Shown: one piece after another, positions 4,994 through 61,956 of the stretch
Position numbering within the stretch: position 1 is the stretch's first letter
Layout of the letters: each line of letters starts with the position of its first letter
Virus record (IMG/VR): IMGVR_UViG_3300035701_000008
Location: 32,001 to 96,000 of that record
DNA: 64,000 nt
From: a virus
Reading direction: 5' to 3' (one strand)
Notes under the pieces: generated by a model
What the model saw: the letters and a program-made list of their open reading frames with translations, nothing else
What the model was told of the DNA's origin: nothing
The model's database searches: none
Translations under genes and position numbers: made by a program

Positions 4994-6001
4994 ATGGCTA
5001 TACCAAGTAAACAAATAGGATGGGGAACAGAATCAAACCTATTATGGCAAATTGCCAAACAATTACAATATTTAACACAAGTGGCAGGAAATGCTCCTAA
5101 AGGTCCATTCAAATATAATGCTAACGGAACAGGTATAGAACCTTGTTTATTTAGTAATACTTCTAGTGGTACTTATTCAACAATAGGTGGTGGATGTAGA
5201 AATACTGCTTCAGGGCAATGTTCTACAGTGGGAGGTGGTCAAAGTAATATAGCTTGTGGTGATTTGGCTACAATTGGTGGTGGTTATATTAACACTGCTT
5301 ATGGTAATTGTTCAACGATAGGTGGAGGTTTTAGCAATCTTACTGAAGGATGTTCATCTACCGTTGGTGGTGGTAATAATAATACTGCTTCTGGTTTTTA
5401 TACAACAGTTGGTGGAGGTTATAATAATTCAGTAATAATTGGTCGTTCAACAATTAGCGGAGGTTATAACAATACTGCCTCTAGTGATACAACAACAATA
5501 GGTGGTGGATTAGCTAATTCTACATCAGGTTCATACTCAACTGTTGGAGGTGGTAGATATAATATTTCAGGTGGTAGTGGTGCTACAATTAGTGGAGGTA
5601 GTGGGAATACTGCTTCAGGCAACTATTCAGTAATTAGTGGTGGTTGCTCAAACATTGCTTCCTATGGTCATTCAACAATAGGCGGAGGATATGGTAACGA
5701 AGCTAATGGTTATTGCTCGACTATTGGTGGAGGTAAAACAAATAATGCTTCAGGTGCACATTCAGTAATTAGTGGTGGTAGTGATAATGTTGCTGATGGA
5801 AATAGCTCTGCTATTTTAGGGGGTCGCAGTAATGACACTTATGGTTTTTCTTATGCAATGATTGTAGGTAATAGTATACAAGCAAATAGAGCTGATACAA
5901 CATTTGTAAATAACCTTTCAATTATGAATATCCCAACAACTCCTGTAGGTTTGCCAAGCGGTGCTGTATGGAATAGTGGAGGAATATTAACTATAGTTTA
6001 A
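4994..6001 (+). CDS. Gly-rich 14-aa-repeat beta-solenoid fibre/adhesin
   Basis: About 16 tandem STIGGGxxNxAxGx repeats (YadA-head-like) behind an N-terminal MAIPSKQIGW module. Confidence 0.75.
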   Translation: MAIPSKQIGWGTESNLLWQIAKQLQYLTQVAGNAPKGPFKYNANGTGIEPCLFSNTSSGTYSTIGGGCRNTASGQCSTVGGGQSNIACGDLATIGGGYINTAYGNCSTIGGGFSNLTEGCSSTVGGGNNNTASGFYTTVGGGYNNSVIIGRSTISGGYNNTASSDTTTIGGGLANSTSGSYSTVGGGRYNISGGSGATISGGSGNTASGNYSVISGGCSNIASYGHSTIGGGYGNEANGYCSTIGGGKTNNASGAHSVISGGSDNVADGNSSAILGGRSNDTYGFSYAMIVGNSIQANRADTTFVNNLSIMNIPTTPVGLPSGAVWNSGGILTIV

Positions 6002-6016
6002 TAAAAATATAAAGAA

Positions 6017-6154
6017 ATGGCAATACCATCAAAACAAATAGGTTGGAGTACACAAAGTAATCTCTTATGGTACATATCAAAAGAATTGGAAAGATTAACA
6101 TGTGTAATGGCTGGTGGCTGTACAACTACTACCACTACTACAACAGTAGCTTAA
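6017..6154 (+). CDS. Poly-Thr mini-protein (45 aa), paralog of the 4994 N-terminus
   Basis: Not in track. MAIPSKQIGWSTQSNLLWYISKELERLTCVMAGGCTTTTTTTTVA. Confidence 0.8.
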   Translation: MAIPSKQIGWSTQSNLLWYISKELERLTCVMAGGCTTTTTTTTVA

Positions 6155-6184
6155 AATAAAAACAAAAATAAAACCAACTACATT

Positions 6185-6790
6185 ATGAAAGATTTAAAAT
6201 TTATCCAGGAAAAATGGTTACCTTGTCCAGGATTTGAAACTTCTTATGAAGTTAGTAATTATGGAAAAGTTAGAAGTATTGATAGATATTGTTCTGGAAG
6301 AAGAGGTCTTATAAAAGGACAAATTATTCATTCTGATTTAAATCAAAAAGGATATCCACAATTAAGACTTTATAATAGTAATAAAAAGTATGTTAGAAAT
6401 CAACATAGATTAGTTGCTTTAGCTTTTATACCTAATCCTAATAACTTACCACAAGTAAATCATATAGATGGTAATAAACTAAACAATCATATATCAAATC
6501 TAGAATGGATTTCAAATTCTGATAACATGAGACATGCATATAAGTTAGGATTAAAATGTAGTAAAGGAGAAAATAATAGTAATTGTAAAATAACAGATAA
6601 TCAAGTAACCCAAATTAAACTTATATACAATAATGGAAAATCTTCTAAAGATATTTCTGAAGAACTAGGTATAAAATTACATATAGTTAGACAAATTATA
6701 AGTGGGAAATCTTGGAAGTCTAATAGAACACCTCTTATGAAAAGAGACGATAGATCAAAAACCAAAAAACCAATATTATGCGTGAATTAA
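6185..6790 (+). mobile_element. NUMOD4-HNH homing endonuclease, free-standing
   Basis: EKWLPCPGFE...YEVSNYGKVRS (NUMOD4) and HRLVA...VNHIDGNKLNN...NLEW (HNH). Confidence 0.9.
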
Positions 6791-7794
6791 AGTTTATACA
6801 AAGTTGCCCAAGCGATATTTATTACACATGGCAAGTAAACCTTTGGATGGAAAGCCTAAAAGAAATAGGACATAGCGATAAAGCTATTAATGTTATCTTT
6901 ATAGCTAAAGGGAGAGAGAATACAGATAAGTGGAAACAAATAGAAAATTTGTATCCAGAAGCAGAGTTTCATTACTATGCAGATGAAGATGATTTAAGTC
7001 GATTGTTAGGAATCTATATTCCTGTTCTACGTCCTTATGTTCTTTGGAAACATTTTAAGAAACATCCAGAGCTAAGTGAAAAAGCTATCTTCTATTGTGA
7101 TAGTGATATTCTATTTATGAAGGATTTTAATGTAGATAAGTTCTTAGAGGATGACATTAGTTACCTATCTGATACAAATAGCTACATCAATGCTAAATAT
7201 TTTGATAGTAAGATTAATCAAGTGCTTCCTGAGAAGCTAGAAGAATATAAGAATAGAGACATTCTTGCAGAAATTGCAAGTGTTGTAGGAATAAGCAGAG
7301 AAATCTGTGAAGCTAATAATGATCATTCAGGAGGAGCACAATATCTATTAAAGAATGTAGATGCAAACTTCTGGAGTAAGGTGATGAATGATTGTATTCT
7401 TATAAGAAGTTATTTACAAACAGTGAATAGAGAATTCTTTAAAGATGAAAATACAGGCTATCAAAGCTGGTGTGCAGATATGTGGGCTGTTCTTTGGAAC
7501 ATCTGGATGAGAGATCAAGAAACAAGAGTGGTCAAAGAATTAGCATTTGCTTGGGCTACAGATCCACTTATCAAATTAGAATCTCATACAATCTTTCATA
7601 ATGCAGGAATAGTTTCTGAAACAGGAAATGGCTATCCAGCTTTCTATAAAGGAAAATATCATATGGGAAGTGATCCAACAAAAGATCCTAACTTAGATGT
7701 TATTCTTAATGATGAGAAAACACAAAAGTATTGTACGTGGTTTTATGCCACTAAATTGAATGAAATTAAAAACAAATATAACCTAGACTATTAA
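6778..7794 (+). CDS. GT-A glycosyltransferase, putative protein O-glycosyltransferase (HPAT/SGT1-like)
   Basis: YYTWQ, YIPVLRPY, DxD (CDSD), GGAQY and WCADMWA motifs. Confidence 0.65.
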   Translation: MRELKFIQSCPSDIYYTWQVNLWMESLKEIGHSDKAINVIFIAKGRENTDKWKQIENLYPEAEFHYYADEDDLSRLLGIYIPVLRPYVLWKHFKKHPELSEKAIFYCDSDILFMKDFNVDKFLEDDISYLSDTNSYINAKYFDSKINQVLPEKLEEYKNRDILAEIASVVGISREICEANNDHSGGAQYLLKNVDANFWSKVMNDCILIRSYLQTVNREFFKDENTGYQSWCADMWAVLWNIWMRDQETRVVKELAFAWATDPLIKLESHTIFHNAGIVSETGNGYPAFYKGKYHMGSDPTKDPNLDVILNDEKTQKYCTWFYATKLNEIKNKYNLDY

Positions 7795-7812
7795 CCCTAA
7801 ATTAAAAAATAA

Positions 7813-8025
7813 ATGGGAAGCATTAATTCAAGACCTTTAAAGGCTTTTGTTCGCTACGATGGTAGCCACAGAATAGTTGCAGGAAGCTTAATCCTTAGAA
7901 AAAATAAGCCAAAAGTAGGTAAGTGGAAAGAAATAAATGCATATGAGTGCTGTTTCCTTAGTACCACTACCACTACAACTACAGTAGCACCAACAACTAG
8001 TACAACAACAACAGGACCATTATAA
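7813..8025 (+). CDS. Poly-Thr mini-protein
   Basis: LKAFVRYDGS module, then ECC, then STTTTTTTVAPTTSTTTT. Confidence 0.8.
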   Translation: MGSINSRPLKAFVRYDGSHRIVAGSLILRKNKPKVGKWKEINAYECCFLSTTTTTTTVAPTTSTTTTGPL

Positions 8026-8027
8026 TC

Positions 8028-8795
8028 ATGAGAAGCAATAATAATAATAAGCTTAAAGCTTTTGTACGTTTTGATGGTTCAGGACGTGTAGTGTCAAGTA
8101 GTTTAATTGTACAAGCATTTAAACCGAAGGTTGGTAATTGGAAAGAAATAGATGCTAAGGAGTGTTGTAATTATACATCCACCACCACATCTACTACCAC
8201 CATACAATCCACTAATTGGACTTTTGTTCCTGATCAACAATTAGTTTGGCCTATTGATCAAAATGGATATACATTATATGAAGGTGAATGGACAGCATTT
8301 GATGATGGACAAACAGTAGATTCATTTCCTTTTGTAGATGATTTTTACGCAACAGGTGTAGCTAGTACTACATTCATTATTGATACTAATGGAAGGGCTA
8401 TGGTTAATGTTAGTAATTGGGATTTATTTGGTAATGGGGGAGATTTATATATAGAACCTGGTACACCTCTTAATGATGGTGATACACAAAACTTTTGGTA
8501 TTTATCAAGTGGACCATCAACTAAATGGAAAAATAGTATATTAGTATATTGTGGACATTGCTGTGGAATTGGATTTGCAGAAAAACCATATTCTTATATA
8601 ATTAATGTATATAGAGATGATACATATCAATATTTAGAAACAAGAATTAAAACAGATAGTTCAATTTCTGGAGTACCTAATGGTGTGGTTGGTATTACTG
8701 GTGCAACAGGTGTTGCAACTGTACAATCACAAGTATGGAGAAGTGGATTATTAGGAGTAGATTGGGCATTATTAGGAAATGGTATAATAATATAA
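8028..8795 (+). CDS. Paralog of 7813 with Thr linker and C-terminal passenger domain
   Basis: LKAFVRFDGS module, ECC, TSTTTSTTT, then a beta-rich domain. Confidence 0.8.
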   Translation: MRSNNNNKLKAFVRFDGSGRVVSSSLIVQAFKPKVGNWKEIDAKECCNYTSTTTSTTTIQSTNWTFVPDQQLVWPIDQNGYTLYEGEWTAFDDGQTVDSFPFVDDFYATGVASTTFIIDTNGRAMVNVSNWDLFGNGGDLYIEPGTPLNDGDTQNFWYLSSGPSTKWKNSILVYCGHCCGIGFAEKPYSYIINVYRDDTYQYLETRIKTDSSISGVPNGVVGITGATGVATVQSQVWRSGLLGVDWALLGNGIII

Positions 8796-8810: not shown

Positions 8811-9230
8811 ATGGCATTAAAATCCCTATTTCCAGAAGAGATGATGGAAGGTAAAGGAGGAGCAACTGGTCTAACATTAGAGACTATTGCAGGGAAGTTA
8901 ACTTATTTTCACTTACAGGCACATCTCCTCCATTGGCAAACAACATCATATGCTCAACACCAAGCTCTTGGTGGATTATATGATTATGTGCATGATTTCA
9001 AAGATGGATTGATAGAGAAGATTATGGGATATACAGGTAAAAGACCTAACCCATATAAAATAGAACCTCTTACAAACTGTACAGCTGGTGAGTGTGTTAA
9101 TAATCTTCTATCTTTTGCTTCAGATTTGAAAGCGTATGGTGAGAAGAATGGTTATCATGATGTATGTAATCTAGCAGATTCATTATCTGGAGAAGCAGCT
9201 AAAGTGCGTTACTTACTAACATTGTCATAA
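8811..9230 (+). CDS. Ferritin/Dps-like protein
   Basis: HLLHWQTTSYAQHQALGGLYD...DGLIE metal-ligand pattern. Confidence 0.75.
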   Translation: MALKSLFPEEMMEGKGGATGLTLETIAGKLTYFHLQAHLLHWQTTSYAQHQALGGLYDYVHDFKDGLIEKIMGYTGKRPNPYKIEPLTNCTAGECVNNLLSFASDLKAYGEKNGYHDVCNLADSLSGEAAKVRYLLTLS

Positions 9231-9515: not shown

Positions 9516-9977
9516 ATGGTAAGACAACACGGTTTTGATACTAGATCTCCTGAATATCATAGAATGAGATATATATGTAAAAAGAATAAAATTTCTTTTG
9601 CAGAATATTATAATAATATAGAAAAGTATAATGTATATACTAGAAGAAAAAAACATTTACATTTAGAACAATATAGTGCTGAATATTATAAAACAATTTG
9701 GTTAAAAAAGAAATATAAAATAACCTTAGAAGAATATAATGAAATGTTAAATAAACAAAAAGGAGTTTGTGCAATTTGTGAAAATCCTGAAACAACTATT
9801 AATAAAAAAACAGGTGAGACTATTAATTTGGCTGTAGATCATGATCATTTAACAGGAAAAAACAGAGGACTTTTATGCACTTCTTGTAATAGAGGTTTAG
9901 GCTGTTTTAGAGATAGTGTTAAGTACTTAGATAATGCTAAAAAATATATAAGTAATCATAACAATAATCAAGTGTAA
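9516..9977 (+). mobile_element. Endonuclease VII-type HNH homing endonuclease
   Basis: CAIC...LAVDHDHLTGKNRGLLCTSCNRGLG. Confidence 0.85.
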
Positions 9978-10006
9978 TAACATTTGAAATAAATTTAGAA
10001 CAATAA
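9968..10006 (+). pseudogene. Relic 3' end of the 9230 gene
   Basis: Reads SSVITFEINLEQ* versus SSVISFEITIN* at the end of 9230..9514. Confidence 0.65.
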
Positions 10007-10992
10007 TGGCAACATTTATAAAAGCTGGATTTTGGGAGCAATTATGTAAACCTTGTACAGGATACAAAGGATGGCTTAATTTAACAAAGTTTGTACAGGA
10101 TACAGCTTCTGAAATAGTAGGTCCTCAAGGTCCTCAAGGAGTGCAAGGCCCACAAGGAATACAAGGAGTACAAGGAGATCAAGGAATACAAGGTGAAACA
10201 GGAGAACAAGGAACAGCAGGTAATTCTGTTACAATTCTTGGTTCATATGCAAATTTAGCAGCATTTAATGCTGGTGCAGGTTCTTTACCTGGAGCTAATA
10301 TAGGTGATGCATGGATTCTTTTATCTGATGGTAGCCTTATGACATGGAATGGCACAGCATGGTTTGATGCTGGAGATATAAAAGGTCCACAAGGTGATCA
10401 GGGAATTCAAGGAATACAGGGACCTCAAGGAGAACAGGGTATTCAGGGGGTACAAGGTATACAAGGACCTGTTGCTCCTTCTACTAGTTTGTTTGCTCAA
10501 ACAGCAAACTCAACACCTGTAACAGGAACTATAGTAGAAAGTACATTAATAGGTACAGGAGTAGGAAGTTTATCTGTTCCTGCAAATGGATTTCAAGTGG
10601 GGGATAGTTTTAGAGCTGTATTTGGTGGTGTTATGAATGCTGCAAATAACCAGACTATTAGAATTAAATTAAAAGCTGGTTCTGTTATTCTTTTAGATAG
10701 TGGTATACAAGATCTTGGAAGTAGTATTGTAGATGATGTATGGAGTTTAAATGTTGATTTTACAATCAGACAAGTTGGAGCTGCTACTGTAGCATCTATC
10801 GTATCATTAGGATCTTTTCATTACACAAAAACTAACAATGCTTCTGTTCAAGGATTTGGTTTTAATGTTGTAAACAATACAACATTCAATACAACAATTA
10901 GCAATACATTAAATTTCACTGTACAATGGGGATCTACTAGTGGTAGTAATTCTATTTATAGTGATATATTTATATTAAACAAAACGTACTAA
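10006..10992 (+). CDS. Collagen-repeat fibre protein
   Basis: Two (GxQ)n blocks and a globular C-terminal domain. Confidence 0.85.
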   Translation: MATFIKAGFWEQLCKPCTGYKGWLNLTKFVQDTASEIVGPQGPQGVQGPQGIQGVQGDQGIQGETGEQGTAGNSVTILGSYANLAAFNAGAGSLPGANIGDAWILLSDGSLMTWNGTAWFDAGDIKGPQGDQGIQGIQGPQGEQGIQGVQGIQGPVAPSTSLFAQTANSTPVTGTIVESTLIGTGVGSLSVPANGFQVGDSFRAVFGGVMNAANNQTIRIKLKAGSVILLDSGIQDLGSSIVDDVWSLNVDFTIRQVGAATVASIVSLGSFHYTKTNNASVQGFGFNVVNNTTFNTTISNTLNFTVQWGSTSGSNSIYSDIFILNKTY

Positions 10993-12186: not shown

Positions 12187-12486
12187 ATGTCTAAGTTAAA
12201 TCCTCAGAAAGCTACAGCATATGTAGGCCCTGGTGTATTACGTAAAGGTGGTAAAATTACTCCTGTTCCTAATGGTCCTCTTATTAAGAAGAAGGGCCCT
12301 TTTAAAGGAAGCACATTGAAAGCTGGTGGTATGATTAAACGTGCTGATGGTTCTATGTCAAGAAGAGGACTTTGGGATAATTTGAGAAGCAAAGCAGCTC
12401 AAAATAAAAAGACTGGTGCAAAACCTAAATCTCCTAGTAAAGCAATGTTGACTCAGGAGAAAAAAATAAAATCTAAAGGAAAATGA
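12187..12486 (+). CDS. Lys-rich basic protein
   Basis: LRKGG, LKAGG and GLWDNLR motifs. Confidence 0.75.
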   Translation: MSKLNPQKATAYVGPGVLRKGGKITPVPNGPLIKKKGPFKGSTLKAGGMIKRADGSMSRRGLWDNLRSKAAQNKKTGAKPKSPSKAMLTQEKKIKSKGK

Positions 12487-13106
12487 TATTAGATATTAGT
12501 AATGAACATAAACAAAAATACTTTTCTCAGAAAGAGAAAGGAGGAGTTATTTATAAAATTACTAATCAAATTGATGGTAAATTCTATATAGGAAGTACAA
12601 ACAATTTGATAAAAAGATATTACACTCATATTAACCACATAAGAACTAATAAATCTACATGTGTAAAACTGATTAGAGCAGTTAATAAACATGGAGAAGA
12701 TAACTTCACATTTGAAATTTTATGTGAATGTTCTACTGAAGAAATACTAAAGACTGAACAAAGTTACATAGATAGTTTAAATCCTACTTATAACATTGCT
12801 AAAATTGCTGGAAGTAATCTTGGAATTAAGAGAACAGAAGAAGTTAAACTTAAAAAATCTATATCTCAAAAAGAAAATTGGAAAGATGATGATTATAGAA
12901 GTAAACATTTAGAAAATTTATCAAAGAATTGGAAAAGTGGAGCTTCTCATAGAATGGCTAAGCTTACAGAAGAACAAGTAATTGAAATTAAAAAACAATT
13001 AGCAAGTGGTCTTTTACCTAAACAGGTAGCAGATAAACTTGAACTTAGTTATTACTCTATAAAAGATATTCATAGAGGAAAGACTTGGAAAAATATAAAC
13101 ATTTAA
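12483..13106 (+). mobile_element. GIY-YIG homing endonuclease
   Basis: GVIYKITN...FYIGST, NUMOD3-like segment, C-terminal HTH. Confidence 0.9.
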
Positions 13107-14053: not shown

Positions 14054-14080
14054 AAAAGCCTCTATTAAGAGGCTTTTTTT
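14054..14080. terminator. Bidirectional intrinsic terminator
   Basis: AAAAGCCTCT-atta-AGAGGCTTTTTTT at the convergence of the two transcription blocks. Confidence 0.85.
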
Positions 14081-14696
14081 ATAATTGTTTTTTTAATTTA
14101 CTTCCCCAAGAGGATACATTTGAAGCATGTTCTAAATAATATCTCCATTCTTCTGGAATTTCATTTAAATACCAAGGAACATGCTTAATACAATAAGGTT
14201 TATCTAACCTAATTGCATTATAAGTGAATGGTGAGTTAGGTGGATATAATGCAAATGTAGTGTCTATATCAGCAATCCAACCATGTTCATTTTTATTAAC
14301 CCAGAACTTACTTTCCCAGTTTATTATATTCTGTCTAAGAGGTGTTTCAGGTAGATCTAAATCTAAAGAGAATCCTACCTTTATATTATCTTTTGCAATG
14401 TTTAACATTACATCTAGCCAATCATCTGGAACTCCTTCATAAGAACAATCTGAATCAGCTATTATAAAATAATCTGTTAAGTGTTGTTTTAAGTCATCTC
14501 CCCATACACTATGAGGACCTCCATTAACTTTAGAATATACAATCTCTACAGGACAAGTTTTGTAGTATTCTAACAATGGTGGGTATGTAGATTGTTGATC
14601 ATATATAATCACATCTATTCTACTCTCCTTAGATAGAAATTCTACTGTTTCTTTGAGTGTAGATAGGAGATTTCTATTTACTATTATTGCTTTCAT
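14079..14696 (-). CDS. GT2-like glycosyltransferase
   Basis: IIVNRN...IIYDQQSTYPPL, ADSD (DxD), ADIDTTFALY. Confidence 0.75.
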   Translation of the reverse strand: MKAIIVNRNLLSTLKETVEFLSKESRIDVIIYDQQSTYPPLLEYYKTCPVEIVYSKVNGGPHSVWGDDLKQHLTDYFIIADSDCSYEGVPDDWLDVMLNIAKDNIKVGFSLDLDLPETPLRQNIINWESKFWVNKNEHGWIADIDTTFALYPPNSPFTYNAIRLDKPYCIKHVPWYLNEIPEEWRYYLEHASNVSSWGSKLKKQL

Positions 14697-15447
14697 TAAG
14701 AAAATCTTTTAGCATTTGTGAGTAGTCTTTATTCCAATGAGGAATAAGTTGAACATTTCCTGTGGGAATCAAATCTTTTTTTCTTAAATCTTCTATATAG
14801 TCACTGTGTCTTTGTATAACATTAGGTCTATCAGGAGTATCTGTTCCAAGACCAGATTGATGATAACCTCTACCACCCCACATATAAAACCAAGAGGCTT
14901 CTGATTCAGGCATTTTTGCATCAACAACATATTGTCTACCTAGAGCATGTATCTTATTAACTAATGTCATATCACCTCCAGCATTTTGTATAGGACTTTT
15001 ACCTATTTGCTCCCAAACTTTTTTACTATATACAATACCTGAATTACCAAGACCCATTATTTTTGTTATCTCAGGCTCATTATAAAATACACCTGTTTCC
15101 CAATGAATAATATTTGTATCTTCTTTCCAAAACTTAGCTATATTAGATAGGTGATTTGGTAAAGCTACATCATCATCATCCCATACAGCTATTAATTCTC
15201 CAGAGCATTGTTCTATTGCAAAATTTTCTTTATCTCCTATAGTGGCAAATGTTCCATCTATATTATAAATCTTTATTTCTGGATGATTATACACTAACTT
15301 CTGTAGAGGGTAATCATTAACTATAATAAGTTCTTTCTTACCAGGATACTCTTGTTGGAGGAAACTTTGTATTGCTTCCTCCAGAGTATCTACTCTTCCA
15401 TAAGTAATACATTTTGCAGAAATCATAGGAAATTCTTTATTTTCCAT
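14674..15447 (-). CDS. GT2 family glycosyltransferase
   Basis: CITYGR...AIQSFLQQEY...LIIVND and WDDDD. Confidence 0.9.
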   Translation of the reverse strand: MENKEFPMISAKCITYGRVDTLEEAIQSFLQQEYPGKKELIIVNDYPLQKLVYNHPEIKIYNIDGTFATIGDKENFAIEQCSGELIAVWDDDDVALPNHLSNIAKFWKEDTNIIHWETGVFYNEPEITKIMGLGNSGIVYSKKVWEQIGKSPIQNAGGDMTLVNKIHALGRQYVVDAKMPESEASWFYMWGGRGYHQSGLGTDTPDRPNVIQRHSDYIEDLRKKDLIPTGNVQLIPHWNKDYSQMLKDFLNESNNSK

Positions 15448-27176: not shown

Positions 27177-29471
27177 TTATGCTAATTGGTCTATTGTTTC
27201 TTCTGTAAGCACTTCATCATTGATTTTGATGTTATAATGCTTTAAATCCACTCTGTGTTTGTAATACTTGAATAAATCAGTCATTACATTAATCATTGGA
27301 TCACCTTCATGGTAATAGCCCATTGATCTACATAAAGGATTTAAGAATTTAAGCTTATCTATAATATCTAACATCTCTAAATACTCTGGATATATAGCTG
27401 GATCAAATAACTTATTCTCATAAGCCACTTCTAACATTGCTTTTCTTATATCATCATTTGTTTGTATAAAATTCTTAGTTCTATACTCAGCTAATCTTTC
27501 TAGTTTATTATAAAGATCTATAGAGGTATGTTTGATTAATGTTCTTTTCTCAAATATATATCTATAATTAACCATCAGATCATTGATTAGTCCAGATGTT
27601 ACGATTCTTTTAAATGGTGTTGTTTTCCCTTCCATAAATTTGTCATAGGATATTAAATTGTGTATATCTAATTGCTCTACAATCTTTAGTTCTCTATCAG
27701 AAAATGTAATCACTTCCATCTTCTGTTTTTGCATAATTCCATAGAGAGCATCAAGTTTTGGTGCATCTTCATGTCTACCATACACTTTTAATCCTTTATG
27801 TCTATGAAGTTCTTCTAACTTGTATAATTGTGAGTCAAATTTACAATTTTTACCACTGTATCGCATTAAATCAACACCTTTTTTACAAACAATCTCTCCT
27901 TGAAGCTTTAGTCTTTTAGCAACACCTAATGCAGATTTAGTTATCTTTGCTTTTTTCTTGCTATCAACAAACTCTTGAGGAATATCATATTCATCAAGAT
28001 TGATGAAGTTTGATTCAACCATAGACATAATGTGTTGATACTCTTTAATAGCATCTCTCCATTTAGATCTTGGAAGTTTAGCAAGATTCAATAAATGATA
28101 ATATGTTTTAAGATTAAACTTAGAAGCCACTCCTAATTCCATAGGTTTGCCTCTCTTAACAAGAAAGTTGTAATCACTCTCTACACATGTAGCTCTTAAG
28201 TAATCCTTTTTGATTTGAGGAATTCTATCATTAAACACCCACACCTTACAACTTCCATTACATATAGATTCTAAATTATATCCCCATACATAATGTTTAT
28301 CTGCATCAGCCATTCTTTTATATCTCAATGAATATCTAGTAGGAAATGCATCTTGCAACATGTTTTGTTTGTGTTGCTTATACAAAGAAGGAAAGTTCAA
28401 AATCTTAACTCCTTCCAATACTGGAACAGTAGGTTTCACTGTGGCATATCTAATAAACTGATCAATGCTACGTTTGTTACCATCAGCCATTTCAATCATA
28501 TGTCCATTCTTCTCAAGATAGTTAATCATAGACTTAATATCATCACCATTGTTTACAGATTTGTTGTAAAATTCAACATACCAATTACCCACTTCACTAA
28601 GTTTACTCATGATGATTTTCTTAGCTTCTTGTGTATATCTCAATGATTCTCTGTTTGGTGTTGGATAGAGTCCATCACTCAATGAAAATCTAAGACCTAC
28701 AGGAAAATCAATTCTATCAATACCAAGCTTCTCAAAATCTAAAGGATAGTACACATTGTCTAAACAGATGTGTAAATATGGATCTGTAGATAGTTCAGAG
28801 AACTGAAAGTGTTCATGTCTACTAATAATAAAATCATTAACAATACTTCTATCATCTGGTACATCAAAATACACACTCTCGAAATAACAAAGTTGTTCTT
28901 TGATTTTCTTCTTGAACTGCCAAAGATCATTGTATTTAACAGGAATAATGATTTTTACACCATTAGCTTCTTCTGTCTCTTTTTCATATAAAAGATCAAT
29001 AGTGTTAGCATCTTCTCCTTCATACATCATATACTTACGTTCCATTCCATCTTTTCTACATACAAAATAAAACGAAGAAGAATAAGCTAATGGTGCCTTA
29101 AATCCGAGTCCCATCATACCTAACTCATTGTTACTCAACCGTTTAGTAGATTTACCATACTTACTAATAATGTTTCTTACATCATCTGCATCTAAGCCTA
29201 TACCAAAATCTTCTACACAAAACTCATAATTGTTATATGAAGCAGCTTTTAGTGAAACTACAATTGGTGTATCAACACCAGCTCTTCTATGGCTATCTAG
29301 TGCATTACTTGCACATTCTCTGATAGCAGAGCCTATATCATCAGAATATAAATTCTTACTTAACATCTGCATCAATATCTGTGCAGAATCTAAGTCTAGT
29401 GACATTCCAATTGATTCTTGTGATTGTCCTTCTTCTAGGACATTTGCTTCTGTCTGTTTTTCTAATATCAT
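27177..29471 (-). CDS. rIIA-like protein with GHKL/HSP90 ATPase domain
   Basis: LYSD...IRECASNALDSH, EDFGIGL, GMMGLGFKAP. Confidence 0.8.
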   Translation of the reverse strand: MILEKQTEANVLEEGQSQESIGMSLDLDSAQILMQMLSKNLYSDDIGSAIRECASNALDSHRRAGVDTPIVVSLKAASYNNYEFCVEDFGIGLDADDVRNIISKYGKSTKRLSNNELGMMGLGFKAPLAYSSSFYFVCRKDGMERKYMMYEGEDANTIDLLYEKETEEANGVKIIIPVKYNDLWQFKKKIKEQLCYFESVYFDVPDDRSIVNDFIISRHEHFQFSELSTDPYLHICLDNVYYPLDFEKLGIDRIDFPVGLRFSLSDGLYPTPNRESLRYTQEAKKIIMSKLSEVGNWYVEFYNKSVNNGDDIKSMINYLEKNGHMIEMADGNKRSIDQFIRYATVKPTVPVLEGVKILNFPSLYKQHKQNMLQDAFPTRYSLRYKRMADADKHYVWGYNLESICNGSCKVWVFNDRIPQIKKDYLRATCVESDYNFLVKRGKPMELGVASKFNLKTYYHLLNLAKLPRSKWRDAIKEYQHIMSMVESNFINLDEYDIPQEFVDSKKKAKITKSALGVAKRLKLQGEIVCKKGVDLMRYSGKNCKFDSQLYKLEELHRHKGLKVYGRHEDAPKLDALYGIMQKQKMEVITFSDRELKIVEQLDIHNLISYDKFMEGKTTPFKRIVTSGLINDLMVNYRYIFEKRTLIKHTSIDLYNKLERLAEYRTKNFIQTNDDIRKAMLEVAYENKLFDPAIYPEYLEMLDIIDKLKFLNPLCRSMGYYHEGDPMINVMTDLFKYYKHRVDLKHYNIKINDEVLTEETIDQLA

Positions 29472-44859: not shown

Positions 44860-46254
44860 TTATATTTTAATCTCTTGTTCACCTACACCTTCTGTATAGC
44901 TGTACACTCTGTCTTCACAAGTCACCTTAATCTGTTTACCACCTGTAGCAAGACATAAATCTCTCAATTCATCATTAAATTCTATCAATGATACAGCATT
45001 CACCTTATAAGGGAATTCATCTGTATTGATTCTATCTTGACCATCGTTCAAAATTAATATCTCTGGTTTCTCATGTGATAGGTCAATATCAAGATTACAT
45101 AATCTACCACTAGATATCTCATCAGAAATACGTTCAACCATAGCAGCAACAGCTGTTTCTCCACCATTAGGTTCATTAGAGAATGTTTGCCAAAATTTAA
45201 TTACATCCTCTTTGTTCTTAATGTGTTGAAATTCTAATTGGTCTGGATCATGAACAAAATAACTAAAGAACACCTCAGCTTCTCCCTTCATTACATACCT
45301 GAATCTGTCTATTAATATAGCATTCACCCAAGTTTGTTTACTATCCTCCCACATAGAACCAGAGAAATCTAGAATGATGATGATCTTTTGAATCTGTTCT
45401 TTTCTATCAACTGGTACATTAACTGTCAAATCTTTAGTTAAGAACTTAGTTCTGAAGTTAGGGAACATCTTTTGATAAAGATCCATCATATGCATTTGAG
45501 CATAGTCTCTCATAATCATCTTAGAATACTCATCAGAATTAGCCACTATCTTTTCAGATATTTCCTTTTCCACTTTGAACTCACTACCAAACTTACCAAC
45601 AAGAGACAAATGGTTCATAATCTCCATCTTTTTATCTCTACTTCTATCATTTAGTTCTAGTTGTTCATTGATGTCTGGATCAGCATATATTTTTCTGTCA
45701 AAATCTAATCCTTTCTTGAGATCTAGCTCATCATCTTCTTGTCTTTCACCATCTGAGTCTTCATTCTTACTTGCTAATTTCAAATAAATAGCAACAGCTT
45801 GTTCAAGAGGTGTAAATCCAGGAATGTATTGCCCATAGATAGAATCAATCAATGGTTTCTTTCTATCATATTGTGCTCTATCTTTATCAGTGAGTGAATC
45901 AACATCTAGATATTTATCATCCAGATAATTAGGTTCTTCGATCATCTTGAAATAACATGCACGTGCTAACTCTTTGATCATATCAATACTCTCTTGACTC
46001 TTGACATATCTAAGTTTCTTCTTTATCTCAGTGGATGTTGGTGTAATGTAATTAACTGGATCTTTAACAAATAAGTTGCTATCATCATCCTCATCAACCT
46101 CTTTAATAAATGAATATGTAGACCAGCTATTTTTAGACCAACTACCACCACCATACTTACTCTTCCAACTTCCTACACTCTTTTTGGGAGTGTAGGTTGG
46201 AGTATAATAATCACCATAGTAATCATCATCAATGTTATCAAATAATGTTCTCAT
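44860..46254 (-). CDS. VWA-domain protein (MoxR partner)
   Basis: MIDAS DFSGS, GGET, LNDG. Confidence 0.85.
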   Translation of the reverse strand: MRTLFDNIDDDYYGDYYTPTYTPKKSVGSWKSKYGGGSWSKNSWSTYSFIKEVDEDDDSNLFVKDPVNYITPTSTEIKKKLRYVKSQESIDMIKELARACYFKMIEEPNYLDDKYLDVDSLTDKDRAQYDRKKPLIDSIYGQYIPGFTPLEQAVAIYLKLASKNEDSDGERQEDDELDLKKGLDFDRKIYADPDINEQLELNDRSRDKKMEIMNHLSLVGKFGSEFKVEKEISEKIVANSDEYSKMIMRDYAQMHMMDLYQKMFPNFRTKFLTKDLTVNVPVDRKEQIQKIIIILDFSGSMWEDSKQTWVNAILIDRFRYVMKGEAEVFFSYFVHDPDQLEFQHIKNKEDVIKFWQTFSNEPNGGETAVAAMVERISDEISSGRLCNLDIDLSHEKPEILILNDGQDRINTDEFPYKVNAVSLIEFNDELRDLCLATGGKQIKVTCEDRVYSYTEGVGEQEIKI

Positions 46255-47564
46255 TAGATAAATGCATTTATGGTTAGATTTTTATCAAATTTGGTTTTAG
46301 CTTGTGTAGCACTCTTAACTAATTGTGAATGTATGTGTGCTATATCATCACCTACAGTGAGGCCTTTGATGTCTGTAAGTTGTTTGTTAAGATCACCAAT
46401 TGCATCTTTGTACATCTTCTCATCCTCTCTTGTTACCAATGGTAGGTGATTTAGTGTCTCAATACTATAAGTGATAGCTGCAGATAAGTCTCTAAACTTA
46501 ATTGTAGCTTCGAACTTCTTAATCACTTCAGCAATCAATGCTGGTTTCTTAGCAAACTCTGCAATGAAACCTAATGAATCTGGACCACATTGATCATACA
46601 CTGAATAAGCTGTTACAGCTACACGTGGACTAATTGTAATACCATTCTTAGCATACTCTTGTAACAAGTATGGAATCACTGGATCTACATTATCTACACC
46701 AAACTTACTTTCTAGTAATCTGTTATAGGATATTTCTGTGTAGTTATCCCATACAACATTCAATTCTAAAGGAAATCTCTCCATCAATGCTTTTAATGAC
46801 ATATTCTTAGAGAATTCATCACGAGTTCTATTTGTACAACAAATGATGAACTTAGTAGCAATAGGAAATATCTGTGTACCATTTCTGAATACACCTGATG
46901 ATAAAATATCCTTCAATTGCTCTAGAATAAAATCTGGTGCATCGAACAACTCTTCGAACACTACATATTCATGGTTCATGAAAGAATTCTCTACAAGATA
47001 TTCTATCTTACCTGTTTTCTCGAATGTTGGTATATCAAGACCACCAAACAATCTGTCTGTTGTCATACCTGTACCCATTGTAATAATGTAAGGAGTGATT
47101 CCTTTAGATTGAAGAAAATCAAGTGTTATTTCTGATTTTCCATGACCCCCTGCGCCATATAAAACTACATTCTTACCTGTTTGAAATCCTACATTAAGAA
47201 TGTTAACTGTTTTGTCCATAAATACGAACTTCTCTGATACTGGATTTGCTTTTGCTGATCTCTTTGCTGTTGTTTTCATTTTTCTTTCTGTTATTAGGTT
47301 GTTGTTTAATTTAATTTGTTCTAAAATTTCTTCGATTATTATTTCTTCTTCTTTGAGAATACATTGTGATGGTCTAAATGTCCAATCATTTATACGAAAT
47401 TGTTGGTTAGATTCAATACTACTATTACATCCATCAGGAACATCTTGTCCCATGAAACGATCCATTTTATTGTAACTATTCCAATGTTTTGGTACATGAG
47501 CAATAGTATCCCAAAGACCATCTCTTTTGAATTCTTCCTCTGTCTTAAATCTATATTTACTCAT
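46254..47564 (-). CDS. MoxR/RavA-like AAA+ ATPase
   Basis: GAGGHGKS, RLFGG, VVFEE, CTN, ALMERF. Confidence 0.85.
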   Translation of the reverse strand: MSKYRFKTEEEFKRDGLWDTIAHVPKHWNSYNKMDRFMGQDVPDGCNSSIESNQQFRINDWTFRPSQCILKEEEIIIEEILEQIKLNNNLITERKMKTTAKRSAKANPVSEKFVFMDKTVNILNVGFQTGKNVVLYGAGGHGKSEITLDFLQSKGITPYIITMGTGMTTDRLFGGLDIPTFEKTGKIEYLVENSFMNHEYVVFEELFDAPDFILEQLKDILSSGVFRNGTQIFPIATKFIICCTNRTRDEFSKNMSLKALMERFPLELNVVWDNYTEISYNRLLESKFGVDNVDPVIPYLLQEYAKNGITISPRVAVTAYSVYDQCGPDSLGFIAEFAKKPALIAEVIKKFEATIKFRDLSAAITYSIETLNHLPLVTREDEKMYKDAIGDLNKQLTDIKGLTVGDDIAHIHSQLVKSATQAKTKFDKNLTINAFI

Positions 47565-60393: not shown

Positions 60394-61956
60394 ATGGCAA
60401 TTCAAACAATTCCTGGGTTAACTGGTTTTACTTATGCTCGTGTAGCGTCTATGGACAAACGTGCAGTAGGAAAACTAACAGACTCTAACCACTTAGAGAG
60501 TTTTCACTCTACTGAGCCTGCAGACTATGACAAGAAAATCATTTCTTTATATACACAGAGCTCGCTTTACAGTAATGACTTCTTAGACATGATCAACAAA
60601 AGCACACCTTATTACATTGATAATAATAGTGATGCATGGAAATGGCAAATAGCAGTTCCTTACAAATTCCCAAAAATTATTGACATTCCTGCTTCTACAG
60701 AAACTTTAATCAGTCAAAGTAAAACAGGTATTGATGGTCAAGAATTTCAATTAGTATTAGATACTAATGAGTTCTCTAAAAATGCTATCATCTCTGTAGG
60801 TACACGTCAATATGGTCCACGTTTCTATGTGATCAAAGATCCAGTGCCTTGGAACATGGGATTCTTGTATACATTTACATTAGTAACAGACAATCCTAAA
60901 GTAGATTTTGTTAATCCTGTATTCTTGCAATATGGTGTTGAACTAGAATTAGTTGATGCTGCTATTGGTGAATTTGATCAAGACTTATTAGGTCTTCCAA
61001 GATTGGGTGAGCAAATCACAATGTTTGAATCATTAGGTTCTGCATATGGATATGAGCACAAAATCACAGAATGGGCTGATGACAAAATGATGAGAGATGC
61101 TTCAGGTAAACCTCTTGACATTTTAGTGTATGCTCCACAAAGACGTAACCAATTACCACTTACACGTAATGATGTTAAATGGGAACCGTTTATTGAATTC
61201 TGGATGCGTAAATCTATGATTGAATTGAAAGTTAAACGTATGATCTGGGCTAAACCAGGTACAGTTAAAACTAATGGTTCTAAACAAGAATTGAAACGTA
61301 CATCTGCTGGTGTTTACCACAGAATGAGAAACAATGGTAACTTAGTACAATATAACAGAGGTGAATTCTCTGCTAACTTAATCCGTTCAGTATTTGGAGA
61401 CTTGTTCTACAGAAGAGTGGATGTGAAAGACCGTTCAGTTAAAATGTATACTAATGAAGCTGGATTCGATGTATTCCAACAAGCTTTGAAAACAGATGCA
61501 TTAAATTCAGGTCTTACATTCATGGCTGATTCTGGAAACAGATATTTGCAAGGTGAAGGACAACACATCACTTACAACTTTGCATTTGATGCAATGGTTA
61601 CACGTGAGACTGGTAGAGTTGAATTGATTCACTTGAAAGAATTAGATTTACCACAATCAAACTTAGAGTTTGGACAAAACAAAAAATCTACTCCAGTATT
61701 TATGGTGTTTGATGTTTCTCCAATGTCTGATGGTTCAATGGTAAATAACATTAGAGAAGTGAGAATGAAAGGTGCTCCTTCTATGACATGGGGATATATT
61801 GATGGTACAAGACACCACTTAGGTTTTGCTAAATCTCAAGGAATGTCTTCTGCTAACAAATTCCCAGGATACGAAATCTGGATGAAAGACAGATGTGATG
61901 TATTTATTGAAGATTTGTCTAGAACTGTGTTGATCGAGGAAATCCCACAATTCTAA
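60394..61956 (+). CDS. Major capsid protein (crAss-type)
   Basis: 520 aa, position after portal and scaffold, strongly biased codons. Confidence 0.85.
   Translation: MAIQTIPGLTGFTYARVASMDKRAVGKLTDSNHLESFHSTEPADYDKKIISLYTQSSLYSNDFLDMINKSTPYYIDNNSDAWKWQIAVPYKFPKIIDIPASTETLISQSKTGIDGQEFQLVLDTNEFSKNAIISVGTRQYGPRFYVIKDPVPWNMGFLYTFTLVTDNPKVDFVNPVFLQYGVELELVDAAIGEFDQDLLGLPRLGEQITMFESLGSAYGYEHKITEWADDKMMRDASGKPLDILVYAPQRRNQLPLTRNDVKWEPFIEFWMRKSMIELKVKRMIWAKPGTVKTNGSKQELKRTSAGVYHRMRNNGNLVQYNRGEFSANLIRSVFGDLFYRRVDVKDRSVKMYTNEAGFDVFQQALKTDALNSGLTFMADSGNRYLQGEGQHITYNFAFDAMVTRETGRVELIHLKELDLPQSNLEFGQNKKSTPVFMVFDVSPMSDGSMVNNIREVRMKGAPSMTWGYIDGTRHHLGFAKSQGMSSANKFPGYEIWMKDRCDVFIEDLSRTVLIEEIPQF

Follow-up and report, generated by a model that had tools for sequence, protein, structure and literature searches.

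A putative poly-threonine-directed protein O-glycosylation system in crAss-like and other phages

The 64,000-nucleotide stretch of viral DNA analysed here, the window, covers positions 32001-96000 of IMG/VR record IMGVR_UViG_3300035701_000008, a phage genome of 113,586 bp that carries direct terminal repeats and has a GC content of about 31%. Its open reading frame (ORF) at 6778-7794 on the + strand encodes a predicted glycosyltransferase (GT) of the GT-A fold, 338 residues long, which lies among genes whose products carry threonine-rich tracts. We propose that this enzyme probably acts in the cytoplasm as a protein O-glycosyltransferase and decorates virion proteins on their poly-Thr tracts. 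Because many unrelated phages combine the enzyme family with poly-Thr tags on their capsid, tail and fibre proteins, those phages would, very probably, sugar-coat their particles. The proposal draws on comparison of genes and on a predicted structure. The phage itself is crAss-like: Pfam places the major capsid protein at 60394-61956 (PF23898 Crass_capsid, E 9e-29, above the cut-off), finds a P22-like portal in the window and, just outside it, a crAss muzzle protein (PF25731 crAss_MUZ, E 4e-34, above the cut-off). A megablast of the region against cultured phages gave no match.

Family and predicted fold of the enzyme

All the ORFs listed in an earlier note on this DNA, which had been made from the letters alone, are present, and ORF 6778-7794 does contain the motifs YYTWQ, YIPVLRP, DSD, GGAQY and WCADMWA. 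The ORF has no Pfam family at E ≤ 0.1 and matches only phrog_4417 (E 9e-54), to which no function has been assigned. The family is nevertheless large, with 2,681 matches in a 90%-clustered database and 773 representatives at 50% clustering. Among cultured phages, 77 of 50,697 records encode a homologue, a baseline of at most 0.15%, and every one of these is annotated as hypothetical. Fusions to GT2, GT6, DXD-sugar-binding or methyltransferase domains occur among the homologues.

An AlphaFold2 model of the enzyme reaches a mean predicted local distance difference test score (pLDDT) of 97 and a predicted TM-score (pTM) of 0.94, with no predicted membrane segment. A sequence search against PDB chains returned nothing meaningful; Foldseek, with the model as query, returned 175 PDB matches at E ≤ 1e-3, the best of which are all GT-A enzymes (glycogenin, UGGT, WbbM and alpha-1,3-GalT). 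Exhaustive structural alignment gives Z scores of 14.1 for LgtC, 14.0 for Skp1 alpha-GalT, 13.9 for glycogenin, 13.3 for UGGT, 12.3 for GlyE and 10.9 for A64R of PBCV-1, and among viral predicted structures (BFVD) uncharacterised phage proteins lead, followed by GT8-like enzymes of giant viruses. In 67 homologues with 30-86% identity, D108 and D110 of the DxD motif, Y80, Y136, Q229, F257, H274 and K291 are invariant. Q229, H274 and K291 may be the counterparts of the catalytic residues of GT8 enzymes such as LgtC and glycogenin, in which a DxD motif is accompanied by a conserved Gln and a His...Lys pair. Since the model is confident, its structural matches are GT-A enzymes and the DxD motif is invariant, the product is, as modelled, a GT-A glycosyltransferase that resembles the retaining GT8 clan.

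This likeness to GT8 is structural only. LgtC, glycogenin, Skp1 alpha-GalT and GlyE align at Z 12-14 over 210-240 residues and share the DxD motif, and several members of the clan act on protein-linked acceptors, GlyE, for example, on a serine-rich-repeat adhesin in a pneumococcal pathway. On the other hand, identity is 7-12% at a root-mean-square deviation of 3.4-4.5 Å, the phage enzyme has about 80 extra residues, and PF01501 (Glyco_transf_8) matches neither the enzyme nor appears among the families of the 67 members. By analogy with these retaining enzymes, the linkage made would presumably be alpha.

The earlier note had described the enzyme as HPAT/SGT1-like. That label keeps a faint footing in language-model neighbours, where PF23452 (HPAT, GT95) labels part of the members in 22 of the 30 nearest named atlas clusters, and in the profile itself, which touches three of the 67 family members below threshold (best E 0.012; cut-off 23.9 bits). 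It fails for the enzyme proper: PF23452 finds nothing at E ≤ 10 in the whole genome, and none of ten distant family members scanned singly matches HPAT. The comparison with HPAT/GT95 was made by sequence profile and language model, and in the comparison with the PDB the nearest enzymes among the matches are of the retaining GT8 type. Kinship with the plant enzymes is therefore weakly indicated, as a possible remote relation suggested by sequence. HPAT and SGT1 are Golgi membrane proteins that act on hydroxyproline or Ser. They resemble the system proposed here in that HPAT (GT95, PF23452) and SGT1/SERGT1 (GT96) O-glycosylate extended protein segments rich in hydroxy amino acids; they differ in that the HPAT profile does not detect the phage enzyme.

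Association of the enzyme with poly-threonine proteins

The earlier note had expected the GT to co-occur with poly-Thr ORFs across related phages, and this is the case. In 59 of 62 related crAss-like loci from IMG/VR, with GT identity down to 50%, poly-Thr ORFs lie on the strand of the GT and none on the opposite strand; the 62 loci together hold 160 such ORFs (138 unique sequences), all of them on the GT strand. Even the clearest apparent exception, locus L047, has three T7-coding tracts elsewhere on that strand. The ORFs are also close to the enzyme: 43 of 58 loci have one no more than 150 nt upstream of the GT, 29 of 54 have one no more than 150 nt downstream of it, and the upstream neighbour in those 43 loci is an orthologue of the same short ORF, a "stub" of 45-57 residues consisting of an adaptor and a Thr tract (family A, described below).

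The association extends beyond the crAss-like phages. In eight of nine distant cultured phages, a GT homologue stands beside poly-Thr proteins; these are Chryseobacterium phage MA9V-3, Enterococcus phages phiFL1A and vipetofem, Lactococcus phage 1706, Lacticaseibacillus phage R9.1, Staphylococcus phage DH5, Arcanobacterium phage TPWB06 and Lactobacillus phage Iacchus. In the siphophages, capsid-type and major tail proteins both end in matching tags, for example T9-10-HHD in 1706 and T8-9-SHV in R9.1, and in phiFL1A and 1706 the GT gene directly follows that of the major tail protein. No gene of the GT2 or GT1/4 families was found in phiFL1A, 1706 or R9.1, so that the enzyme is the sole recognisable GT in these three phages; for this reason it may be argued that it primes glycans rather than only extending them.

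The association also holds when approached from the tracts. A sample of 80 IMG/VR viral loci was drawn solely by a Thr9-coding DNA pattern, and five of them encode the GT (28-35% identity to ORF 6778-7794), to be compared with the baseline of at most 0.15%. In all five, the GT gene lies directly downstream, on the same strand, of a gene for a large multi-domain protein with poly-Thr linkers. A negative control points the same way. Homologues of the 1706 tail protein lack the tag in five of five phages (Gordonia, Arthrobacter and Microbacterium phages, Lactococcus phage P078 and one faecal phage), and a profile hidden Markov model of the GT detects none of these five untagged records, as against five of five known carriers. 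In P078 (L199), the capsid and tail proteins alike carry one Ig-like domain at the C-terminus, in the very place where 1706 (L065) has the T9-10-HHD tag, which looks like an exchange between two kinds of surface decoration.

Architecture of the poly-threonine proteins and their locus

The poly-Thr ORFs of the crAss-like relatives follow a common plan: a conserved N-terminal adaptor, as a rule one or two Cys residues, (T7-[V/A/I]AP)n repeats, and then either a stop or a varied C-terminal domain. Three adaptors recur in the relatives, namely module A ('MAIPSRQIGW...'), module B ('...LKAFVRFDGSGR...ECC') and module C ('MPTFIKAGFW...'). The T7 blocks are spaced by VAP, AAP or IAP, and they repeat every 10 residues 87 times and every 11 residues 18 times. 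Stubs of family B are 55-91 residues long, in 10-residue steps. The statement of the earlier note that the Thr tracts follow cysteines holds fully for family B, where C46 and C47 are invariant and each of the 39 module-B proteins aligned has a Cys-Cys pair immediately ahead of its Thr repeats; it does not hold throughout family A, in which the Cys is not universal. The Cys-Cys pair of module B resembles the disulfide knot that links the chains where collagen III helices end.

The tracts use mixed codons, as had been noticed before (ACT 0.41, ACA 0.42, ACC 0.15), and the mean longest same-codon run is 2.5 against a mean tract length of 7.8. Because the codons are mixed, we reject an origin of the tracts by slippage. 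The stubs are likewise real genes, because their adaptors are under purifying selection: the ratio of nonsynonymous to synonymous substitution rates (dN/dS) is 0.10 in family B and 0.20 in family A, as low as in the long forms, values that are approximate, with dS near saturation, yet clearly well below 1. Given these ratios, the 10-residue length steps and the intact ends, the possibility that stubs are pseudogenes or fragments was discarded.

At the locus itself the three Thr-tract ORFs read as the earlier note had them, and the homing endonuclease that it placed among the neighbours of the enzyme is there. ORFs 6017-6154, 7813-8025 and 8028-8795 are the only ones with a tract of at least six Thr or Ser residues in the six frames of the window. 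With Thr at its ordinary frequency, a T7 run would be expected with a probability of about 1e-9 at any one position, so that this clustering is far beyond chance. Upstream of the GT, 4994-6001 (+) encodes a 335-residue module-A protein in which the adaptor ('MAIPSKQIGW...') is followed by a Gly/Asn-rich, beta-helix-like repeat domain with sub-threshold matches to UspA1_rep and LbR_Ice_bind; it has no Thr tract, and it is a paralogue of a 291-residue fibre-like protein encoded just upstream of the window. The stub that comes next, 6017-6154 (+), is a putative minimal glycan carrier of 45 residues, with an adaptor, a C..GGC segment, T8-VA and a stop, and is 69% identical over 32 residues to the N-terminus of 4994-6001, making the two paralogues.

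Between this stub and the GT lies an HNH/NUMOD4 homing endonuclease gene, 6185-6790 (+), with matches to NUMOD4 (E 1e-13), HNH_3 (E 2e-8) and phrog_59 (E 1e-51), which overlaps the start of the GT by 13 nt. Most relatives have no such insertion, only about 30 nt separating the end of the stub from the start of the GT; the endonuclease gene is a mobile insertion and stands outside the glycosylation system. Several relatives have gaps of 0.4-1.6 kb between the GT and the module-B stubs, perhaps other mobile insertions.

Downstream of the GT, 7813-8025 (+) is a module-B1 stub of 70 residues, in which a 47-residue beta adaptor runs to the invariant ECC and is followed by S-T7-VAP-TTSTTTT-GPL and a stop. 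Its paralogue 8028-8795 (+), a module-B2 protein of 255 residues to whose N-terminus it is 64% identical over 47 residues, has the B adaptor with ECC, a short Thr/Ser linker (TSTTTSTTT) and a C-terminal domain of about 190 residues. In the model of the latter, adaptor residues 8-46 (pLDDT about 92) form three short strands and a short helix that carries the CC; beyond the adaptor confidence is low, and the mean pLDDT is 50. Further along, 10006-10992 (+) encodes a collagen-like fibre protein (Collagen E 1.5e-10; tail-fibre PHROGs) that begins with a module-C adaptor, 'MATFIKAGFW...'. Because in relative L052 (6009-6485) this adaptor heads a poly-Thr linker, we count 10006-10992 among these modular virion-surface proteins as a member of their family.

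The genome as a whole has ten poly-Thr ORFs, the three at the locus and seven more that lie mostly outside the window. All belong to the late module on the + strand; the replication module, on the - strand, has none. The crAss muzzle protein is one of them, and proteins with lectin-like domains are among the others; behind the Thr linker some have a Fib_succ_major domain (E 1e-40) or a weak, below-cut-off match to Lcl_C. A late protein of 224 residues (genome 101859-102533; L072 5859-6533) has a Thr/Ser tract of about 58 residues with a long alternating Ser-Thr run, a flavour other than that of the T7-xAP repeats.

Other candidate glycan genes are present as well. Two adjacent GT2 genes (14079-14696 and 14674-15447, - strand; Glycos_transf_2 E 1.3e-5 and 6.3e-12) are candidate extenders. 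Around the upstream end of the window, a sulfotransferase (genome 30573-31394; L194 1474-2295; Sulfotransfer_3 E 2e-16) and a 314-residue GT9-like ORF (genome 31331-32275; L194 2231-3175) come after a 108-residue protein that ends in T7-VLV and the 291-residue beta-helix fibre paralogue. We do not accept the GT9 assignment of the earlier note, the match being 12.6 bits and sub-threshold, with no sequence relative in the PDB. The genome has no priming enzymes of the GtfA/B type (GT1/4 family). The GT2 pair, the GT9-like ORF and the sulfotransferase may possibly elaborate glycans on Thr, as the note had supposed; no tie between them and the Thr tracts was found.

Some further genes deserve mention. 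Directly after the poly-Thr genes, in the late module, 8811-9230 (+) encodes a DUF5856 protein (phrog_858, 'starvation-inducible transcriptional regulator'). Amid the fibre genes there are a GIY-YIG homing endonuclease gene (12483-13106, +) and an endonuclease VII gene (9516-9977, +), which with the HNH gene bring to three the nuclease genes, two of them of homing type, inside 7 kb of this variable fibre region. Elsewhere in the window, a MoxR-type AAA+ ATPase (bpMoxR, E 4e-13) is paired with an unannotated 464-residue protein (44860-47564, -), and the replication module includes a 764-residue GHKL-ATPase-domain protein (27177-29471, -).

The proposed system, its alternatives and its significance

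The pathway that we envisage is simple. The soluble enzyme would be made with the late proteins, bind a nucleotide sugar through its DxD-metal site, and move the sugar onto the Thr hydroxyls of T7-xAP repeats in the cytoplasm, before or during assembly. The acceptor would occur in three settings: as a linker that joins a docking adaptor (module A, B or C) to one of various C-terminal domains, whether beta-helix, lectin-like or Cys-rich; as a C-terminal tail; and as the whole content of the 45-91-residue stubs, which would be minimal glycan bristles. The outcome would be a glycan brush of mucin-like character, stiff, hydrated and resistant to proteases, on fibres, tail or capsid appendages, with a role comparable to that of Ig-like decoration domains. 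The scheme presumes Thr as the acceptor, priming instead of extension by the enzyme, a place for the adaptor proteins in the virion and this role for the brush. Of what the earlier note had claimed, the O-glycosylation of Thr tracts in virion proteins draws strong support, all of it comparative, from the conservation, the co-occurrence across lineages, the reverse sampling and the negative control; the HPAT label comes out weaker.

It is tempting to go one step further and regard the stubs as dedicated glycan carriers. In such an arrangement, the 35-47-residue adaptor would plug into the crAss-like virion and display only a (T7-xAP)n stalk, the CC could lock a multimer by disulfides, the transferase would recognise or measure its substrate in units of the 10-residue period, and the number of repeats (1-4) would tune the thickness of a mucin-like coat. 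We offer this as a tentative idea, rather less likely to be right than wrong. A different role for the stubs, which we consider very improbable, is that of glycosylated peptide precursors resembling glycocins or RiPPs (ribosomally synthesised and post-translationally modified peptides), with an N-terminal leader and a Cys/Thr-rich core, released at lysis instead of being parts of the virion. At 45-91 residues, with a conserved N-terminal and a Cys/Thr-rich C-terminal part, under purifying selection and beside a modifying enzyme, the stubs do have that appearance. However, their N-terminal modules also stand at the start of large proteins of the beta-helix, collagen-like and lectin-like kinds that are typical of phage fibres, the neighbourhood shows no partner such as a protease, transporter or cyclase, and in other lineages the tags are on capsid and tail-tube proteins.

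Several points weigh against the proposal that the enzyme glycosylates virion poly-Thr tracts. The predicted fold by itself does not tell the acceptor. The 59 of 62 crAss-like loci amount to conservation, not to independent co-occurrence, because these loci are related to one another. Among the cultured carriers, Lactobacillus phage SAC12B has the GT but shows no poly-Thr ORF up to 6 kb away from it. The module A and B proteins are placed in the virion solely by gene position and by their fibre-like paralogues, and our literature search found no paper on the enzyme family, on phage poly-Thr tags or on glycosylation in crAss-like phages. Furthermore, 75 of the 80 Thr9-pattern loci lack the GT in the stretch fetched, so poly-Thr tracts also occur without the enzyme nearby.

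This last figure, 94% of the sampled loci, would suit the notion that the tracts are unmodified flexible linkers or tails, that the GT acts on host envelope polysaccharide, on lipopolysaccharide or on phage DNA bases, and that the genes are neighbours because they share a variable accessory region. Thr/Pro-rich linkers are common in modular extracellular proteins, and GTs that serve DNA hypermodification or O-antigen conversion are indeed found in phage genomes, according to the literature. We nevertheless hold this to be quite unlikely: the pairing recurs in unrelated genome architectures, even inside the conserved head-tail morphogenesis module of small siphophages; tail-protein homologues in phages that lack the GT also lack the tag; and the enzyme has neither a membrane segment in its model nor any DNA-glycosyltransferase family or fold among its sequence-profile and structure matches. 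Somewhat less improbable, although still unlikely, is that the Thr tracts are glycosylated and the enzyme extends a glycan primed by a host enzyme or by the phage GT2 or GT9-like products, as the GT8 enzymes GlyE and GlyD do on serine-rich-repeat proteins. Its nearest folds include the glycan-extending enzymes LgtC and GlyE, the genome has other GT candidates and some homologues are fused to other GT domains; yet glycogenin and Skp1 alpha-GalT, which act on protein-linked acceptors, are equally close in fold, across lineages the tags track the enzyme and not GT2 genes, and phiFL1A, 1706 and R9.1 keep their tags with no other recognisable GT. Direct, poly-Thr-directed O-glycosylation is the explanation that we prefer.

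Glycosylation of phage particles has a precedent. In Che8 and related mycobacteriophages, phage-encoded GTs covalently glycosylate the phages' own capsid proteins and create a glycan shield (Freeman et al. 2023, Cell Host Microbe 31:1216, as cited in PMC11256854, PMC13313380 and PMC12582341). Some mycobacteriophages are the only tailed phages whose particles are known from experiment to be glycosylated. Both systems have phage-encoded glycosyltransferases, here a predicted one; the mycobacteriophage system belongs to another host phylum and other phage lineages and, as described in the citing papers, uses other enzymes. Here, an unannotated phrog_4417 enzyme adjoins its presumed substrates, and the acceptor would be a pure poly-Thr tag with a T7-xAP period.

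A64R of chlorovirus PBCV-1 and the GT8-like enzymes of giant viruses are also virus-encoded, cytoplasmic GT-A enzymes that glycosylate their own capsid, although they belong to the giant viruses of eukaryotic hosts. The glycans of PBCV-1 are N-linked to the capsid protein and are not on poly-Thr tags. Ig-like decoration domains, in turn, occupy the same C-terminal position on capsid and tail proteins, as the pair P078 and 1706 illustrates, but are folded domains, whereas the tag is of low complexity, enzyme-dependent and presumably glycosylated. Judging from the sequences, the novelty appears to lie in combining another family of enzyme with a defined acceptor tag and with stubs as minimal carriers, in crAss-like phages and in many others.

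If the proposal is true, a very large unannotated enzyme family offers a simple acceptor tag that can be read from sequence, and many small 'hypothetical' ORFs, often missed by gene callers, would acquire a function. Glycan coats on virions would then be a widespread trait, present in the crAss-like phages that infect aquatic Bacteroidota and also in the lactococcal, enterococcal, staphylococcal and lactobacillal phages with which dairy and therapy research works, with a bearing on adsorption, stability, immune recognition and the stickiness of the particles. The enzyme and its tag would also make a compact pair for cytoplasmic O-glycosylation in bacteria. And should the stubs be dedicated bristles, they would constitute a genetically minimal, enzyme-written phage surface layer, interchangeable with Ig-like decoration domains.

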